A stretch of 64,000 nucleotides of DNA from Shigella phage Sf19: sequence record MF327005; one strand, given 5' to 3'. Every line of letters starts with the position of its first letter. The stretch's first letter is position 1. Positions 165 through 17,381 of the stretch are shown here, piece after piece. Position numbers and translations under genes: made by a program. The notes beneath the pieces were generated by a model. It was not told where the DNA came from, searched no databases, and saw only the letters and a list, made by a program, of their open reading frames with translations.

Positions 165-646
165 TGGTTAAAAGGGTTATTCACCCCGCTAGAGCTAAAT
201 TAGTCGGGGCTATGAAGAACTTGCATACGGCTAATGCTCAAGTTGGGTATTTTCAGGAACAAGGTCAACATAGCTCTGGTTTTTCTTACTCTGCTTTAAT
301 GTACTTGCATGAAGTTATTGGTGTACCAGCAGCTTCAGGTAAAGTATATCGTAGGTTGTTTGAAATTACTATGATGTTACACAGACAGACCTTGTTAGAG
401 CAGACTAAGAAGAATCTCTATAAGCAATTAAACAGTCTTAATACTGACCCCTCAGATACTTTAGAAGCATTTGCAAAGAGTGCTCAGAAAGCAATTAAAA
501 GAGGTTTTGGTAATACGGCTATATTGCCTCCTAACGCTCCATCTACAGTTAAAAAGAAAGGCTTCAATGCCCCTCTTGTAGAAACTGGAGATTTACGAGA
601 TAACCTTGCTTATAAAATTTCTACTAAGAAAGGTATTAAAAAATGA
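164..646 (+). CDS. hypothetical virion protein (neck/tail module)
   Basis: 160-aa ORF, first of a tightly coupled co-directional structural gene string. Confidence 0.5.
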   Translation: MVKRVIHPARAKLVGAMKNLHTANAQVGYFQEQGQHSSGFSYSALMYLHEVIGVPAASGKVYRRLFEITMMLHRQTLLEQTKKNLYKQLNSLNTDPSDTLEAFAKSAQKAIKRGFGNTAILPPNAPSTVKKKGFNAPLVETGDLRDNLAYKISTKKGIKK

Positions 647-1044: not shown

Positions 1045-1618
1045 GAAAGGTATTGTCCGAGTTTTGGTTGATGTTATTGGTCACCGTTTAGCGAGAGACA
1101 AGAATAACAGACCAAATGTTATTAGGGCTTACCCTTCAGATAATTCCAATGATAAAGGTCTGAAACCAGACCAACCTTTTATTACAGTATACTGTCAAGA
1201 TGCTACCACACCTTATGGTTGGGTTCTTGATAAGTTCGTGGAAGATGATGTAGTTTGTTATAGAATTGCTTTTCAGATTCCTGTACTGATTACTGTAAAT
1301 GGTAAAGGTGCTCACAGTATTATGCTTGAGCTAAAACAAAGATTAGAGATGAGTACTACAAGAGATTATCTAGCTGACATGACAGGTGCTTCAGTACTTG
1401 ATACAGGGGCTATCCCGAATGATTATACTTATCTCAACACAGATTTTGAAAATTCTGCACCTCTTGTTGTAACCCTTGTAAAAAATTCAGTATTAAAAGA
1501 TGAACGTGGCAGTATTATTGAACGTGTCATTGTGGATGGTGAATTGGTTTACGAGGAAGGACAGGAGCCACCAGAATATACTATCCATCTAGATGTAGAC
1601 TCCAAAGGGGTAAAATAA
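1019..1618 (+). CDS. hypothetical virion protein
   Basis: 199-aa ORF; start uncertain (26-nt overlap with upstream ORF). Confidence 0.45.
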   Translation: MQLETAELEKGIVRVLVDVIGHRLARDKNNRPNVIRAYPSDNSNDKGLKPDQPFITVYCQDATTPYGWVLDKFVEDDVVCYRIAFQIPVLITVNGKGAHSIMLELKQRLEMSTTRDYLADMTGASVLDTGAIPNDYTYLNTDFENSAPLVVTLVKNSVLKDERGSIIERVIVDGELVYEEGQEPPEYTIHLDVDSKGVK

Positions 1619-2971
1619 ATGTGGAATCCAATTGTTAATGTAGATATTACATTGAACACAGCAGGAACTACAAGAGAAGGTTTTGGTTTACCATTATTCC
1701 TTGCTTCAACAGATAACTTTGAAGAAAGAATCCGTGGTTATACTTCATTAACAGAAGTAGCTGAAGACTTTGATGAAAGTACTGCTGCGTATAAAGCTGC
1801 AAAACAGCTATGGAGCCAAACTCCAAAAGTAACTCAACTGTATATTGGTAGAAGAACTATGCAATATACTGTTTCTATTCCTGACACAGTGGCTGAAGGA
1901 AGTGAATATTCATTGACAGTTGCTATCGGTGGTGGTGTTTCTCAGCCATTCCAATACACTGCAAAAGAAAACGACACAGCACTTATTGTCTTGAATGAGT
2001 TTAAATCACAGATTGAAGCAAGCCCAACAATTAAAGATGGTGTTAATGCTAGTGTAACAGGTACTGGTGCTTCTGCGACGATGATTATTACTAAAGCTGG
2101 TGATAATGACTTCGTAAAAGTAACATCTATTACACCTACAACGTCTATTGCAGCAACAACTGCTGACACGGCTTCCGCTGCTCTGGCATCCATTGAGACA
2201 TATTCAACAGATTGGTACTTCATCTCAGCAGAAGACAGAACTCAACAGTTTGTCTTAGCAATGGCTTCAGAGATTCAGGCTCGTAAGAAGATTTTCTTCA
2301 CAGCTAATGCTGACGTTAAGGCTCTGCAAGGCACTGATTTGACCTCTGCAACAGATGTTCCGGCACAGTTAGCTAAGAGCAAGTACACTCGTACAGTTTG
2401 CTTGTGGCATCACACAGCCGAGTTTGACTACCCAGAAATGGCTTACATTGCATATGGTGCTCCATACGATGCAGGTTCAATTGCTTGGGGTAACGCTCAA
2501 TTAACTGGTGTTGCAGCATCTCTACAACCCGCTAACCAGAGACCACTGACAAGCATTCAGAAGTCAGCTTTAGACACTCGTAGCTGTAACTTCATTGACC
2601 TCGATGGTGGGGTTCCTGTAGTGCGTAGAGGTATCACTTCTGGTGGTGAATGGATTGATATTGTACGTGGTGTTGATTGGCTTGAATCTGATTTGAAAAC
2701 ATCTCTGAGAGACTTGCTAATTAATCAGAAGGGTGGTAAGATTACTTATGATGATACTGGTATTACCCGTATTCGTCAGGTCATTGAAACATCTCTTCAG
2801 CGAGCAGTTAACAGAAACTTTTTGTCAACTTACACCGTTACTGTTCCTAAAGCCTCACAAGTTGCATTGGCAGATAAGAAAGCACGTATCCTGAAAGACG
2901 TTACCTTCCACGGTATTCTTGCAGGGGCTATCTTGGATGTTGACTTGAAAGGCACAGTGGCTTACGAATAA
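1619..2971 (+). CDS. putative tail sheath protein
   Basis: 450-aa ORF immediately upstream of a ~150-aa tube-like ORF, chaperone pair and tape measure (contractile-tail gene order); no motif-level proof. Confidence 0.5.
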   Translation: MWNPIVNVDITLNTAGTTREGFGLPLFLASTDNFEERIRGYTSLTEVAEDFDESTAAYKAAKQLWSQTPKVTQLYIGRRTMQYTVSIPDTVAEGSEYSLTVAIGGGVSQPFQYTAKENDTALIVLNEFKSQIEASPTIKDGVNASVTGTGASATMIITKAGDNDFVKVTSITPTTSIAATTADTASAALASIETYSTDWYFISAEDRTQQFVLAMASEIQARKKIFFTANADVKALQGTDLTSATDVPAQLAKSKYTRTVCLWHHTAEFDYPEMAYIAYGAPYDAGSIAWGNAQLTGVAASLQPANQRPLTSIQKSALDTRSCNFIDLDGGVPVVRRGITSGGEWIDIVRGVDWLESDLKTSLRDLLINQKGGKITYDDTGITRIRQVIETSLQRAVNRNFLSTYTVTVPKASQVALADKKARILKDVTFHGILAGAILDVDLKGTVAYE

Positions 2972-12190: not shown

Positions 12191-13366
12191 ATGCCAGTAG
12201 GTGAAATTCAAATTAGTGCATTGCCTCAAGCCTCGTTGCCTATTGATTTAAGTGATATCTTTCACCTTAAGCAAGGTATTGAGGATAAACGATGCACACT
12301 TGAGCAATTACTTGCTCCACACGCATCTTTAAGAAATAACCCACACGGCGTTACAAAGGTTCACGTAGAACTCGGTAATGTTGTTAACGCACTCCAATTA
12401 GTGGCTGCTAATAACTTGTCAGACGTGGTTAGTGTTGAAGAGGCTAGGCAGAACCTTAATATTCTATCAAGTGATGAAGTTAATGCTCTTATCCAGAATC
12501 ACATTAATGACAAGAATAACCCTCACAACACTAACAAGATTCAAGTAGGTTTGTCTAATATTCAAAACTGGACATATTCAAACTCTTACTCTGAAGACGC
12601 TGATAAGTATGCTACTGCAAAAGCTGTGAATGCTTTATACAGGGCTATCCAGAATAGCTATCCAATTGGTACTATTCATTTGTCAGTTAACCCTGCAAAC
12701 CCATCTACATATTTACTTTGTGGTGGTACTTGGGAGTTAGTTTCTAAAGGAAGGTCTCTTGTCGGTTATGACACAGATACAAGACCTGTAGAATCAGTAT
12801 TTGGTTCTGCTACTGTAACACTTACACAAAATAACATTCCAAGTCACACACACTCTGTATTGTTAACTGGTGGTGGACACTCCCATAATGCAACAGTAGT
12901 AATTTCTAGCTTTGACTATGGGACTAAGAGCACATCAAGTTTTGATTACGGTTCTAAGGCCACAAACGACTCTGGAAGCCACGCTCATAACGTTAATGGT
13001 TCTGTAAGCAGTGCTGGTAGTCACAGCCACAGGATTCCATTGAGGGGTTCTGACAGGGGTGGTGTGAATGCTATTACGGCAACGGCTGATGCAGGGGTTG
13101 GTAATGCGTCATATACAGACTTTGATGGGGTTCACACACATACCTTCAACGTTAATTCTTCAGTTGGTGGTAACCACTCTCACAGTGTGTATATCGGAGC
13201 ACATGGACACAGTGTTGCAATTGGTTCACATGGACACTCAGGTACTGTGACAGTCCAATCTTCTGAGCACACTCACTCAGGTACAACTGGTGCATTTGGT
13301 GCTGGACAAGCATTTAATATTGAGCAACCTTCTTATGTTGTATATGTTTGGAAGAGAACTGCGTAA
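12191..13366 (+). CDS. tail fibre protein with His-rich C-terminal tip
   Basis: C-terminal third contains repeated HxH motifs (HTHS, GHSHN, SHAHN, SHSHR, HTHT, NHSHS, AHGHS, SHGHS, EHTHS); C-terminus ...YVVYVWKRTA resembles next ORF. Confidence 0.7.
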   Translation: MPVGEIQISALPQASLPIDLSDIFHLKQGIEDKRCTLEQLLAPHASLRNNPHGVTKVHVELGNVVNALQLVAANNLSDVVSVEEARQNLNILSSDEVNALIQNHINDKNNPHNTNKIQVGLSNIQNWTYSNSYSEDADKYATAKAVNALYRAIQNSYPIGTIHLSVNPANPSTYLLCGGTWELVSKGRSLVGYDTDTRPVESVFGSATVTLTQNNIPSHTHSVLLTGGGHSHNATVVISSFDYGTKSTSSFDYGSKATNDSGSHAHNVNGSVSSAGSHSHRIPLRGSDRGGVNAITATADAGVGNASYTDFDGVHTHTFNVNSSVGGNHSHSVYIGAHGHSVAIGSHGHSGTVTVQSSEHTHSGTTGAFGAGQAFNIEQPSYVVYVWKRTA

Positions 13367-13411: not shown

Positions 13412-15790
13412 ATGGCTGAATATAAGCTAAGTGAGCTAAACAGTATTGATACAGTTCGCTCAGAAGATTTACTTCACCTAAGAATTATCAAAAGGTCTGA
13501 TATGCTAGGTGATGAAGACCGTAAAATGACCTATGCAAATTTCCTTGCCTCTTTCAAACTAGAAAGATTCTTACAACTAACTGGTGGGGATATGACAGGG
13601 AATCTTGGCATCGTTAAATTAAGATACGGTGGAAAAGACTTATTAGACCCAACAGGTTCTTCTGAGGTTATTCTCGGTGACACTGCCAAGACCTTTAGAA
13701 TTAATGCAAGTGCTTTAAGATTAACTGTAAATGATGCCACAAGGTCTGCAACAGTTTATCACACACTTAATAAACCATCTCCTAATGAATTAGGTATGAG
13801 AACTAATACTGAAAATGATGCAAGATACGCTATGAAGGAAACTGAAAATACCTTCTTGGCAAGACAAATCATTAATATCAACGGTGTTGGTTTGACACTT
13901 AAAAGTATCTTACCAGATGGTGGAGCATATATTGAAGCAAGAGACTCAAATAATGCTTTGAGATTCACAGTTGGTAACTTGACTTCTGGGACTGATGTTA
14001 CATTAGTTAACAGCAAAGGTGCTACGTTGACTCTTGGTACAAACTCTGTTAGTGTTGACAAGAACTTTGAAATCAATGGTCAGGTTCAGCCTAATAACTG
14101 GAACAACCTTGATGCAAGATTCTTTACACAGACTGCTGCTGACCAGAGATTTGCAAGACTTAATGCAAGTAATAACTTTGTTGGGGTTAACAACTTCAAC
14201 GGGAAGACTTATGTTATTGCAGATAGTAATGCACTTAACTTAAGAGCGGCTACAGAGAATGCTGCATTATTTATGCGTGGTTACAACAGTGCTGGGACAG
14301 GTGCTTGGTATGTGGGTCAACCAGATGGTACGCAGTCTGAGATTGTTTTAGCAAACCAGATGACAAATGTTAACTTGAAAATTGCTACAGAGTTTTCATT
14401 TAACAAAGCTATTAATGTATCTGGTCAGGTAAAACCAAGTGACTTCGCAAACTTTGATACAAGATATGTTCCAAGCTCTTTAACGAACGTGCTTGCAAGA
14501 ACTAATGCTGCAAACGTTTTTACTAACCCACAAACTATTGTTACTACAGATGCGGCTTTCACATTGCAAAGTGGGACAGCTAATTCATCACTGTATATTG
14601 TTGGCGCTAATGCAGACGGCAACAGACGTTGGTATATTGGTAACGGTGAAGGCAGTAGGCCAAATTCTCTGTTCCTGTACAACTATTCAAGTGGTGGTGT
14701 ACAGTTAGAAATTGCTGACACTTTCATGTTCAACAGAAGCGTATCAGTAACTGGTCAGGTTCAGCCTACAGATTGGACAAACTTCGACTCAAGATACTAC
14801 ACACAGTCTGCTGCAAACTCTAGATATATGTTATCTGGTGTATCTGGAACTGGAACAGAAGTAGGTGATGCAACAGGTATTGCTTGGAATTCAAAAACAG
14901 GTTTGTACAGTGTTACAAATTCAACTGGTGGGTCTACTCACTTAGTTTACCAAATGCACCTTGGAGTTGGTACATCTACACCGACTGCACAGTTTAAATT
15001 TAACTACAAGAATACTGGAATCTATTATAGAACAGCAAGGGATGGATTTGGTTTTGAAGAGGTTTGGGCTAAAATCTACACAGACCAAGACAAACCTACA
15101 CCTTCTGAACTTGGTGCTTACACCAAGGCTGAAGTAGACCAACGTATTGCTTCTGCTGTAACTGATTCTACAGACCTCAAGAAAGTGTATCCAGTTGGTA
15201 TTGTGACGTTCTTTGCTTCTAATGTCAACCCAAATACAGCTTTCCCAGGCACTACTTGGACTTACTTGACAGAGGGTGCAAACAGAACTATTAGAATTGG
15301 TTCTGCAAATGGTTCCGATGTGAAAGGTCTTGGTGGTTCTGATACGGTGGCTCTAAGTGTTGGTCATATTCCTGCGCACACTCATAGCTTCTCTGGAACA
15401 ACAAGTACATTTGATTATGGTACTAAGTACACAGACGCTCAAGGTGCTCACGACCATGACAGAGGTAACATGGAAATCTCTGGTGACTTTGGTTTCTTCA
15501 GAAGTGATGCAAACAGCTTCTATACAGCAAGTGGGGCATTCGCTATCTCAGGTTCACAAGCCTCTAGGGGTTATACTGGTTCACAATTCACTTATGGTAC
15601 ACCTGTCAACTTCTACGCATCAAGAACTTGGACAGGGAGAACAAGTTGGGTAGGTGCTCACGGTCACGGTGTAGGTATTGGTGCTCACAACCACACATTT
15701 AGTGGTAACACTGGTGCAACTGGTTCTGGTGCAGCATTCAGTGTTCTGAACACTTACATTAAATTAATGGCTTGGGTAAGAACTGCATAA
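13412..15790 (+). CDS. long tail fibre protein
   Basis: 792 aa; three internal copies of a GQV(Q/K)P-x-(N/D)(W/F)-x-N(L/F)D-x-R(F/Y) motif; C-terminal His-rich region (HTHSFSG, AHDHD, AHGHGVGIGAHNH) and ...LMAWVRTA end paralogous to upstream fibre. Confidence 0.75.
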   Translation: MAEYKLSELNSIDTVRSEDLLHLRIIKRSDMLGDEDRKMTYANFLASFKLERFLQLTGGDMTGNLGIVKLRYGGKDLLDPTGSSEVILGDTAKTFRINASALRLTVNDATRSATVYHTLNKPSPNELGMRTNTENDARYAMKETENTFLARQIININGVGLTLKSILPDGGAYIEARDSNNALRFTVGNLTSGTDVTLVNSKGATLTLGTNSVSVDKNFEINGQVQPNNWNNLDARFFTQTAADQRFARLNASNNFVGVNNFNGKTYVIADSNALNLRAATENAALFMRGYNSAGTGAWYVGQPDGTQSEIVLANQMTNVNLKIATEFSFNKAINVSGQVKPSDFANFDTRYVPSSLTNVLARTNAANVFTNPQTIVTTDAAFTLQSGTANSSLYIVGANADGNRRWYIGNGEGSRPNSLFLYNYSSGGVQLEIADTFMFNRSVSVTGQVQPTDWTNFDSRYYTQSAANSRYMLSGVSGTGTEVGDATGIAWNSKTGLYSVTNSTGGSTHLVYQMHLGVGTSTPTAQFKFNYKNTGIYYRTARDGFGFEEVWAKIYTDQDKPTPSELGAYTKAEVDQRIASAVTDSTDLKKVYPVGIVTFFASNVNPNTAFPGTTWTYLTEGANRTIRIGSANGSDVKGLGGSDTVALSVGHIPAHTHSFSGTTSTFDYGTKYTDAQGAHDHDRGNMEISGDFGFFRSDANSFYTASGAFAISGSQASRGYTGSQFTYGTPVNFYASRTWTGRTSWVGAHGHGVGIGAHNHTFSGNTGATGSGAAFSVLNTYIKLMAWVRTA

Positions 15791-16481: not shown

Positions 16482-17381
16482 CTACTTACCTACTGATAAA
16501 GGTGCTTCAATCTTACCAGCATGTTTATACCCTTTCAACCCACCTAGGAAGTCATCTGCTGTCATATGTCTCAAGTCTTCAAGAGACTTCAAATCTTGAT
16601 GAATTTCAAACTTAGGTGCTGGGAACTCTTCATTACCAAGAAGCTGAAAAACCTGTGACATATGGTTCTGGTAGATTTGAGTATCACCATAAGTCCCTAC
16701 CAGATATCGCGGTGTATATCCCGTCAGTTTACACAACACTTCCAAGATAAAGGCATAGGAAGCAATGTTAAATGGTAACCCTAAGAAGGTATCACAAGAG
16801 CGCTGATACCATTTCAAATCCACCTCATTAGTGTTCGAGATATAAATCTGAAAAAGTACATGACAAGGTGCTAATGCCATAGAGTTACTTGAGATATCTG
16901 CTGCATTCCATGCGTTAACGAGCATGTAACGGTCTGTAGGAGACTTTCTCATCTTCTCTACAAGATTACTCAACTGGTCTACAACAACGCCACCATGACC
17001 TTCGTAGGCTCTCCATTGGACTCCATAGATTCTTCCTCCAGCGTCCTCCAGCCAATCATTCTCTGTAGCATAGGTTGTTTTCAACCAACGTTTAAAATCA
17101 TCTGTCCAGATAGTCCAACGCTCTCCGTCGTTCTCTCCCCAAGTTCTGTAACGCAAATGGCCTAGTTGGTTTTCACCGTTCATAAACCATAATGCTTCAC
17201 CGAGGACTTGACGCATAAATGTTTGTTTTGAGGTGATTAAAGGAAATCCACTACGCATATCAAAACGGAACTCAGGTGGAGCAAAGGTAGAAATCACTGA
17301 GCCAGTTCGGGTTTTACGCAACTCACCAACTGATAAAACATGGTTTAAAATAGCTTTGTAGCTTACATCTGCTTGTGACAT
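16482..17381 (-). CDS. thyA: thymidylate synthase
   Basis: ThyA signature blocks: RTGxxxxSxF, WN...ALAPCH (active-site Cys), YQRSCDxFLGLPFNIASYA. Confidence 0.85.
   Translation of the reverse strand: MSQADVSYKAILNHVLSVGELRKTRTGSVISTFAPPEFRFDMRSGFPLITSKQTFMRQVLGEALWFMNGENQLGHLRYRTWGENDGERWTIWTDDFKRWLKTTYATENDWLEDAGGRIYGVQWRAYEGHGGVVVDQLSNLVEKMRKSPTDRYMLVNAWNAADISSNSMALAPCHVLFQIYISNTNEVDLKWYQRSCDTFLGLPFNIASYAFILEVLCKLTGYTPRYLVGTYGDTQIYQNHMSQVFQLLGNEEFPAPKFEIHQDLKSLEDLRHMTADDFLGGLKGYKHAGKIEAPLSVGK

Follow-up and report, generated by a model that had tools for sequence, protein, structure and literature searches.

Shigella phage Sf19 encodes a tail fibre protein in which a short motif is found three times, raising the question of whether the motif marks a true internal repeat and, if so, what is repeated, how it varies and what it may do. 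We analysed the gene within a window of 64,000 nucleotides (sequence record MF327005), i.e., the whole stretch of DNA under study. Judging from its fibre gene, which is nearly identical to Mooglevirus fibre genes, the carrier is a Mooglevirus (Ounavirinae, Felix O1-like) myophage. In Escherichia phage vB_EcoM_3HA14, the tail fiber protein gene is 99.2% identical to the open reading frame at the nucleotide level, and the fibre genes of Shigella phages Sf13-Sf18 are 94-98% identical to it. Its ortholog in Sf14, gp53, likewise has 792 residues, with 94.3% nucleotide identity and a matching gene neighbourhood. According to the accessible text of the Sf14 study, gp53 is the 'longer tail fibre' seen by cryo-EM, 630 Å long, while gp52, of 391 residues, measures 430 Å (Commun Biol 2025, PMC11821841). 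Other open reading frames near the gene encode the second fibre, small proteins, thymidylate synthase and DHFR, and a tRNA scan of the 64-kb window found no tRNA genes. The features of the locus are listed in Table 1.

Table 1. Features of the fibre locus, with positions in the window and residues of the encoded proteins
Feature	Position (nt)	Strand	Residues	Description
Second fibre gene	12191..13366	+	391 in total	ortholog of Sf14 gp52; PF21939 Gp10_C, E 5e-17
Tail fibre gene	13412..15790	+	792 in total	open reading frame; ortholog of Shigella phage Sf14 gp53
N-terminal region, conserved	13412..13858	+	1-149	column entropy 0.1-0.5, lower than elsewhere in the protein
Module 1	13859..14179	+	150-256	variable core 150-221; conserved junction GQVQPNNWNNLDARFFTQTAADQRFARL…, 'type A' tail
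Module 2	14195..14524	+	262-371	variable core 262-336; junction GQVKPSDFANFDTRYVPSSLTNVLARTNAANVF, 'type B' tail
Module 3	14525..14836	+	372-475	variable core 372-446; junction GQVQPTDWTNFDSRYYTQSAANSRYMLS, 'type C' tail
T7 gp17 tip-type domain, internal	14843..15172	+	478-587	Pfam PF12604 'gp37_C', E 6.5e-18
C-terminal HxH-rich domain	15179..15787	+	590-792	resembles T4 gp10 C-terminus and T4 gp37 needle

The motif GQV[QK]P…N[LF]D.R[FY] lies at residues 223, 338 and 448 (nt 14078, 14423 and 14753). These sites are spaced by 345 and 330 nt, in good agreement with the ~340 bp given by an earlier reading made from the letters of this DNA (hereafter the sequence-only reading). That the three sites are a chance or compositional coincidence is hardly credible. 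A blastp self-comparison of the 792-residue protein yielded no off-diagonal match, which could be taken in favour of coincidence, and the self-alignment proposed as a check of the repeat therefore finds nothing in its plain form. Because of this outcome, Smith-Waterman alignment calibrated on shuffles and profile methods were used instead. Compared with 1000 shuffles, alignments between units gave z-scores of 5.7 (first and second), 15.4 (first and third) and 27.3 (second and third), and in this calibrated form self-alignment does recover the repeat. The full motif was matched 0 times in 20,000 shuffles of the protein, with 2 matches for the short form GQV[QK]P. Coincidence is also refuted by three independent Pfam matches (E 3e-14 or better) and by a predicted secondary structure that is identical in all three modules. 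The module cores of this fibre share only 14-30% identity with one another, and the repeat is evidently an old one, at the protein level.

The triplication proposed by the sequence-only reading is thus borne out by the motif sites, the z-scores and the separate Pfam matches, and its estimate of ~110 residues per module is close to the ~105-115 residues found. The span it assigned, 14060-14830, does contain three copies of the motif. Nevertheless, its start was misplaced: since the motif closes each module, the repeated region begins at about nt 13859, ~200 nt upstream of 14060, and the assigned span takes in only the tail of module 1.

The repeated unit is a catalogued domain in a known fibre, and in this respect an ordinary feature. 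The whole protein matched PF20744 'gp37_trimer' in 3 stretches (E 2.8e-44, 149.5 bits), and modules 1, 2 and 3 submitted singly matched it with E 3.3e-14, 2.4e-14 and 4.5e-18 (53.1, 53.5 and 65.5 bits), all over the gathering score of 21.7 bits. Our own profile, built from an alignment of 28 module units, covered residues 151-249 (E 2.8e-30), 265-364 (E 2.2e-35) and 374-474 (E 2.7e-37). The proposed internal repetition of a shaft or binding domain accordingly holds: one known fibre domain occurs three times in tandem. A six-frame scan of the 64-kb window with the profile revealed no further copies beyond these three, and a Pfam scan found no PF20744 pyramid module in the neighbouring 391-residue fibre.

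Comparison with solved structures points to T7 gp17 as the archetype of the domain. A phmmer search of the PDB with the whole fibre protein missed the repeat region, and the module-unit profile alone found T7 gp17 (residues 369-436, E 2e-8) and the Mu fibre S (5YVQ), whose residues 357-442, including QVIPGNYANFDSRYV, aligned with E 1.6e-5 to 3e-3. T7 gp17 itself matches PF20744 at residues 371-464 (E 1.6e-40), the part of the pyramid that was crystallised, and PF12604 at residues 466-542. The two proteins therefore share both Pfam families, and the fold of the T7 pyramid (371-447; PDB 4A0T/4A0U) is matched at ~2 Å rmsd. The T7 order of pyramid, short linker and tip-type domain is kept here in module 3 and residues 478-587: the PF12604 domain comes directly after module 3, whereas modules 1 and 2 each precede another pyramid. 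On the other hand, T7 gp17 has one pyramid in place of three in tandem, and in the profile alignment its linker lacks the GQVxPxDxxNxDxRY motif. Unlike in T7, the tip-type domain is internal here, as another domain, HxH-rich and ~200 residues long, lies behind it, and the carrier is a myovirus whose baseplate is Mu-like. Mu has only one copy, divergent and without a PF20744 call in Pfam, compared with three called copies here; residues 327-429 of Mu S' (8JU3) matched fibre residues 477-582 (E 2.6e-22). The origin from T4 gp37 implied by the Pfam name was rejected, as T4 gp37, gp34 and gp36 had no PF20744 or PF12604 match at E <=0.01; furthermore, T4 gp34-gp37 gave no match to the module profile at E <=10. 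In the Sf14 paper, as far as its accessible text goes, T7 gp17-like and Mu gp49-like domains are reported in gp53 and its relatives are said to contain 'at least one' gp37 trimer domain, which is assigned to T4 gp37 from the Pfam name and is traced here to T7 gp17 (PMC11821841).

An AlphaFold2 model of the fibre agreed with this assignment. The model is a monomer with a mean pLDDT of 59 and low-confidence junctions, and its three cores are predicted overall at pLDDT ~76-92. Five β-strands were placed in each core, at residues 173-215 (pLDDT 76-89), 286-330 (pLDDT 79-92) and 395-440. Foldseek superposed the model on T7 gp17 371-553 (4a0u, 4a0t) at a probability of 1.0, with 64-70 columns aligned at 1.8-2.6 Å rmsd, and its best match was the Mu fibre 8ju3. 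For gp53, AlphaFold trimers were docked into a moderate-resolution map by the Sf14 authors, as stated in the sections available (PMC11821841). In the T7 pyramid, all three monomers contribute to one intertwined β-layer (PMC11680406). Each module here consists of a variable five-β-strand core of ~75 residues and a conserved neck of ~30 residues, GQVxPxDxxNxDxRY…, and the modules are arranged in the order A-B-C, each position having its own junction type. By analogy with the solved T7 gp17 structure, the fibre trimer may have a triangular β-structure in which the β-strands of its three chains interdigitate. Each module would then add a rigid segment, of roughly 85-90 Å if estimated from 630 Å for 792 residues. 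We consider it probable that three tandem T7 gp17 pyramid domains form the middle shaft of the longer of the two tail fibres, with their cores acting as exchangeable cassettes.

The regions flanking this shaft are of other kinds. Residues 1-149 presumably link the fibre with the baseplate, a putative role suggested by their position and by what the accessible Sf14 text describes (PMC11821841). The C-terminal domain consists, by its entropy profile, of conserved arms around a variable insert at ~671-750. It resembled PF21939 Gp10_C with E 2e-5 and 25.9 bits, under the gathering cut-off of 27, and the T4 gp37 tip 2xgf matched fibre residues 629-769 (E 4e-5).

Internal repeats are candidates for changes in length, as the sequence-only reading had supposed. 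We found three modules in every one of the 120 closest homologs, and the isolates listed in our phage-collection searches all had fibre genes of three-module size. Two syntenic metagenomic orthologs carried 4 and 5 modules, so that length variation stands for these two but not for the nearest homologs and the listed isolates. In the 5-module gene, a direct repeat of 300 nt with 74% identity was spaced by 651 nt, exactly two modules, and module number may change by tandem duplication of such junction-to-junction blocks. Two proteins considered as many-copy relatives, P0127 and P0201 (13 and 10 'stretches'), were not counted, with ~10-13 bits for each stretch; a Pfam scan of P0127 gave no PF20744 call. 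The two-module duplication still visible in the 5-module gene, and the occurrence of 3, 4 and 5 copies among distant orthologs, would also suit a DNA tandem array whose copy number is often changed within this gene by slippage or unequal crossing-over. We regard such an array as very improbable. Over 50-74 nt, repeats in this gene agree at only 64-74% of nucleotides, and no exact stretch visible in the aligned copies exceeds 17 nt, a similarity too low for frequent slippage or unequal crossing-over to be expected. Tandem Repeats Finder listed nothing of module length; its only entry was a 21-nt stretch with a period of 11 at another place in the gene. Together with the copy number, constant across the close homologs, these results largely refute instability of a DNA tandem repeat.

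Sequence variation of the modules is concentrated in their cores. Among orthologs, column entropy was 1.5-2.1 in the cores, 0.3-0.6 in the junctions and 0.1-0.5 in the N-terminus, and mean pairwise identity was ~45% in the cores, 75-85% in the junctions and 89% in both protein ends. No other part of the fibre varies as much as the cores; the tip insert is variable too, but less so. At >=80% identity the core types were position-specific, with about 5-8 larger types per position. Within a set of 96 orthologs, the majority of pairs that were at least 90% identical in one core had <=50% identity in another. A recent exchange was visible in the fibre of Shigella phage ESh19, in which core 3 alone was replaced (block at about nt 14537-14770, 44% nucleotide identity) while modules 1, 2 and most other segments were 95-100% identical. 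The crossovers fell in the tail of junction 2 and in the GQVQPTDW motif, and the ESh19 core 3 was 88% identical at the nucleotide level to that of Felixounavirus REP8-12, compared with 44-70% in the flanks. In Citrobacter phage KMM4 it was the tip-type (PF12604) block that was replaced, with breakpoints at about nt 14790 and about 15095. The expectation of a recombination hotspot thus holds for exchange between phages, as seen in the discordant cores and the ESh19 swap. The cores assort independently among Ounavirinae, and crossovers fall in the conserved junction motifs, the source of shared DNA.

Other routes to fibre variation were considered. In Mu, fibre variation arises by Gin-mediated inversion, and the chaperones U and U' are required. 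Neither the open reading frames beside the present gene, nor the six-frame profile scan, nor the accessible text on Sf14 gave any sign of an invertase, a chaperone homolog or a silent cassette next to it. Since the six-frame scan of 64 kb detected only the three expressed copies, programmed variation through an invertible segment or through silent cassettes within the window was rejected. A likeness is offered by the T-even phages, for which Tétart et al. (J Mol Biol 1998) reportedly described mosaicism of gp37, with recombination between conserved motifs swapping adhesin segments. In both systems, short conserved motifs bound variable segments and serve as crossover points between related phages. 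The domain is a different one, since T4 gp37 lacks PF20744, and what varies here is a whole domain of the shaft, at each of three fixed positions, whereas T-even gp37 varies in segments of the tip. We found no paper on PF20744 or on Ounavirinae fibre mosaicism that describes the triplication or the cassette exchange. The A-B-C triplication, the exchange at junctions and the 4- and 5-module orthologs are not spelled out in the accessible text of the Sf14 paper (PMC11821841).

What the cores do can be read in more than one way. They might be pure spacers that set fibre length and stiffness, their diversity being old neutral divergence reshuffled by recombination. This is a real possibility, though we hold it somewhat less than probable. 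The constant module number of the close homologs and listed isolates is consistent with it, as is the strong purifying selection on same-type cores (dN/dS 0.0-0.14, like the rest of the gene), which is as compatible with a purely structural role as with binding. In T7, moreover, the pyramid is structural and the tip binds LPS, as far as the accessible sources state (PMC11821841, PMC11680406). On the other hand, spacers would hardly be expected to vary more than the presumed tip insert, nor near-identical genes to differ by one whole core. The core moved between genera also argues against spacers. Its dS was 0.04, compared with >1 in the flanks, and in one pair it carried 15.5 nonsynonymous and 1.5 synonymous changes (dN/dS ~3.2). 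By a rough binomial estimate made by hand, this excess over neutrality is not significant (p ~0.08), and given so few changes we do not claim positive selection.

Alternatively, the cores could be lateral receptor-binding sites, so that several independent specificity cassettes would lie along the shaft in addition to the tip. The independent assortment of a few discrete, position-specific types, the transfer of a cassette between genera and the absence of purifying selection after that transfer are in line with such sites. Contacts with the receptor proximal to the tip are also raised for the sister fibre gp52 in the available part of the Sf14 paper (PMC11821841). Nevertheless, Pfam detected no carbohydrate-binding family in the cores and receptor binding is not known for the homologous domain in T7, and we consider this alternative rather unlikely. 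The Sf14 authors, in the same accessible text, place most divergence at the distal tip (PMC11821841). Our preferred reading is that at least some exposed surfaces of the cores putatively contact the host envelope. A fully combinatorial adhesin, in which ~5-8 core alleles per position across Ounavirinae genera would set host range through shaft and tip together, with adaptive change following transfer, seems unlikely.

In itself the feature is of modest interest: the domain is already catalogued, and the ortholog of the fibre that carries its three copies was imaged in 2025. The Pfam names 'gp37_trimer' and 'gp37_C' are misleading, as the archetype is T7 gp17 and T4 gp37 has neither domain, which affects the description of such fibres. 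The 4- and 5-module orthologs indicate that shaft length can change by whole-module steps, and the junction motifs are natural splice points for building chimeric Ounavirinae fibres in work on phages of Shigella, E. coli and Salmonella.

The motif that defines the sequence-only reading occurs three times in the 792-residue tail fibre, at residues 223, 338 and 448 (nt 14078, 14423 and 14753; spacings of 345 and 330 nt), and its full regular expression was absent from all 20,000 shuffles of the protein. Similarity among the units reaches beyond the motif, with Smith-Waterman z scores of 5.7, 15.4 and 27.3 (against 1000 shuffles) between ~100-residue units ending in it. In the self-alignment proposed as a check, a blastp self-comparison of the fibre protein returned no off-diagonal match. 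Every module closes, at its C-terminus, with the motif and, given the positions of the modules, the repeat starts ~200 nt upstream of where it had been placed; the span 14060-14830 captured a real repeat but opened too far downstream. Core identity between modules is 14-30%. At the DNA level, the copies are 64-74% identical over 50-74 nt (longest exact stretch visible in aligned copies, 17 bases), and Tandem Repeats Finder reported no module-length array in the fibre gene. The repeat is not a slippage-prone DNA repeat. These comparisons indicate that the repeat is old and exists at the protein level. No silent module copy was found elsewhere in the 64-kb window. Junction 1 exceeds junction 2 by ~7 residues (residues 251-264, window 14162-14203); the closing N-x-F element occurs twice in it (NASNNF VGV NNF; homolog consensus NNTFTGANTF), which explains the period of 115 versus 110 residues.

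Features of the tail fibre region (window coordinates unless a residue range or another sequence is named)
Feature	Position	Strand	Remarks
Second fibre gene, directly upstream	12191-13366	+	391 residues; ~ten HxH motifs; Gp10_C E 5e-17
Tail fibre ORF	13412-15790	+	792 residues; contains the repeated motif
Modules 1, 2, 3	13859-14836; residues 150-256, 262-371, 372-475	+	
PF20744 'gp37_trimer'	three copies in the 792-residue fibre		Pfam
PF12604 'gp37_C'	residues 478-587 of the 792-residue fibre		Pfam
Gp10_C-like, HxH-rich domain	residues 590-790		Pfam match sub-threshold
Shared core-3 cassette	14537-14770; L003 (ESh19) about 1426-1660; L009 (REP8) 1601-1841		

An internally repeated shaft or binding domain had been predicted, and the units, each submitted alone, all matched Pfam PF20744 significantly (E 3.3e-14, 2.4e-14 and 4.5e-18). 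The family names 'gp37_trimer' and 'gp37_C' are misleading: T4 gp37, along with gp34 and gp36, matched neither PF20744 nor PF12604, whereas T7 gp17 matched both (residues 371-464, E 1.6e-40, and 466-542, E 1.1e-15), in the regions crystallised as its pyramid and tip domains. A profile built from 28 module units likewise had no match in T4 gp34-gp37; against the PDB, it found T7 gp17 (residues 369-436, E 2e-8) and, in Mu fibre S, a stretch at 357-442 that contains QVIPGNYANFDSRYV (E 3e-3). The monomer was modelled with AlphaFold2 from 96 homologs; confidence was poor overall (mean pLDDT 59) but reached ~76-92 in the three cores. Each core was modelled with five β-strands in an identical pattern (173-215, 286-330 and 395-440), and the junctions contained short helical turns. 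Foldseek placed the model on T7 gp17 371-553 (probability 1.0, rmsd 1.8-2.6 Å over 64-70 columns), and its top match was Mu fibre 8ju3.

Escherichia phage vB_EcoM_3HA14 carries a 'tail fiber protein' gene that is 99.2% identical to this one in nucleotides; for the counterparts in Shigella phages Sf13-Sf18, KPS64 and others (Ounavirinae, genus Mooglevirus), identity is 94-98%. The surrounding genes, too, are those of these phages: a baseplate J-like protein, the HxH-rich fibre of 391 residues, small ORFs that carry a holin annotation in relatives, thymidylate synthase and DHFR. A 2025 cryo-EM study of Sf14 assigned gp53 (792 residues), the ortholog of the fibre here, as the 'longer tail fiber' of 630 Å, noting that some of its domains resemble the C-terminus of T7 gp17 and Mu gp49, and assigned gp52 (391 residues) as a 430-Å fibre (PMC11821841). 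The upstream fibre is the ortholog of gp52 and has no pyramid module. The GC skew changes sign near 16 kb and again near 28 kb, and the first change coincides with the start of minus-strand ORFs (thymidylate synthase, DHFR) at 16482; ARAGORN found no tRNA genes across the window (1-64000).

Length variation, as anticipated for such a repeat, was seen only at deeper divergence. All 120 closest homologs (identity down to 56%) have exactly three modules, and fibre genes were of three-module size (~2.3-2.55 kb) in all isolate genomes listed in phage-collection searches. When 1.84 billion representative proteins were searched with a profile, 277 matched at E ≤1e-3; on re-scanning, the best 150 of these had one copy (76), two (62), three (10), four (1) or five (1). 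The last two, metagenomic proteins P0122 (901 residues, four Pfam stretches) and P0121 (1015 residues, five Pfam stretches), align with the window protein along the whole length, and their contigs (87 kb and 77 kb, respectively) keep the gene order found here: second fibre, long fibre, small ORFs, thymidylate synthase and DHFR. By sequence and synteny, they are true orthologs of the window fibre. Junction types show that the middle, type B module is the one multiplied, in the pattern A-B-B-B-C. The five-module gene carries a 300-nt direct repeat (74% identity) with copies 651 nt apart, a spacing of two modules, and so preserves the trace of tandem duplication of a two-module block. Two longer metagenomic proteins, P0127 (2080 residues) and P0201 (1711 residues), were not counted as many-copy relatives: their 13 and 10 matches to the module profile were each weak (~10-13 bits), and Pfam made no PF20744 call in P0127, the one scanned. 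They may be multi-module fibres that have diverged strongly, or the matches may be compositional noise.

The suggestion that the repeat is a recombination site was borne out between phages. Among 54 non-redundant orthologs, the three cores had the highest column entropy (1.5-2.1), above that of the presumed tip insert (671-750). Entropy stayed low in the junction motifs of all three modules (0.3-0.6) and reached its minimum (0.2-0.5) in the first 140 residues and the C-terminal arms. Mean pairwise identity was ~45% in cores, 75-85% in junctions and 89% at both ends. At 80% identity, each position has its own small set of discrete core types, about 5-8 of them larger; few connections between positions appear, at 50-60% identity. 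More than half of the pairs at least 90% identical in one core are at most 50% identical in another. Phage ESh19 matches the window gene at 95-100% of nucleotides across modules 1 and 2 and in most of the remaining segments; the match falls to 78-80% for junction 3 and for the tip insert, and to 44% for core 3, with crossovers in the junction-2 tail and in GQVQPTDW. Its core 3 is 88% identical to that of Felixounavirus phages REP8-12, with flanks at 44-70%; a cassette has therefore moved between genera (Mooglevirus and Felixounavirus). In Citrobacter phage BSwM KMM4 (L004, 301-2850; 849 residues), the T7-tip-type domain is swapped for a longer segment (21% residue identity, window about 14790-15095); the remainder is mostly 91-98% identical in nucleotides, dropping to 70-75% for junction 3 and for the tip insert. 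Of the megablast end points, those at gene nt 761 and 1099 mark where modules 1 and 2 end, and that at 1339 lies at the module 3 motif.

Same-type cores are under purifying selection (dN/dS 0.0-0.14). The transferred core 3 (ESh19/REP8) has dS 0.04, dN 0.12-0.17 and dN/dS about 3.2, with dS >1 in flanking segments. With 15.5 nonsynonymous and 1.5 synonymous changes, it looks as if it was transferred recently and then gained substitutions that mostly alter amino acids; in so small a sample, the changes are suggestive of positive selection and too few to claim it. Core 1 (window 13859-14074), compared with ESh19 and KMM4, has dS 0.23-0.28 and zero nonsynonymous changes, beside an N-terminal region with dS 0.01-0.10, and seems to have a separate history of same-type allele exchange with very strong protein conservation. 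A variable insert (residues 671-750, window 15422-15661) lies between conserved HxH-bearing arms, HTHSFSG… and GAHGHGVGIGAHNHTFSG. Because this arm-insert-arm arrangement is like the needle and tip of T4 gp37, with its down-and-back topology, the physical tip may be formed by the insert and not by the C-terminus. Contact of the variable cores with the host seems rather unlikely.

Overall, the observation is confirmed and its interpretation supported: the fibre contains an internally repeated shaft domain. The domain family is known, and an ortholog of this fibre has been published. In the published description of the T7 pyramid (PMC11680406), the three chains together build an intertwined β-layer, after which come a short helical linker and the tip. 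By analogy, one module would be one rigid trimeric shaft segment, and the conserved neck, GQVxPxDxxNxDxRY, may keep the chains of the trimer in register from one segment to the next.
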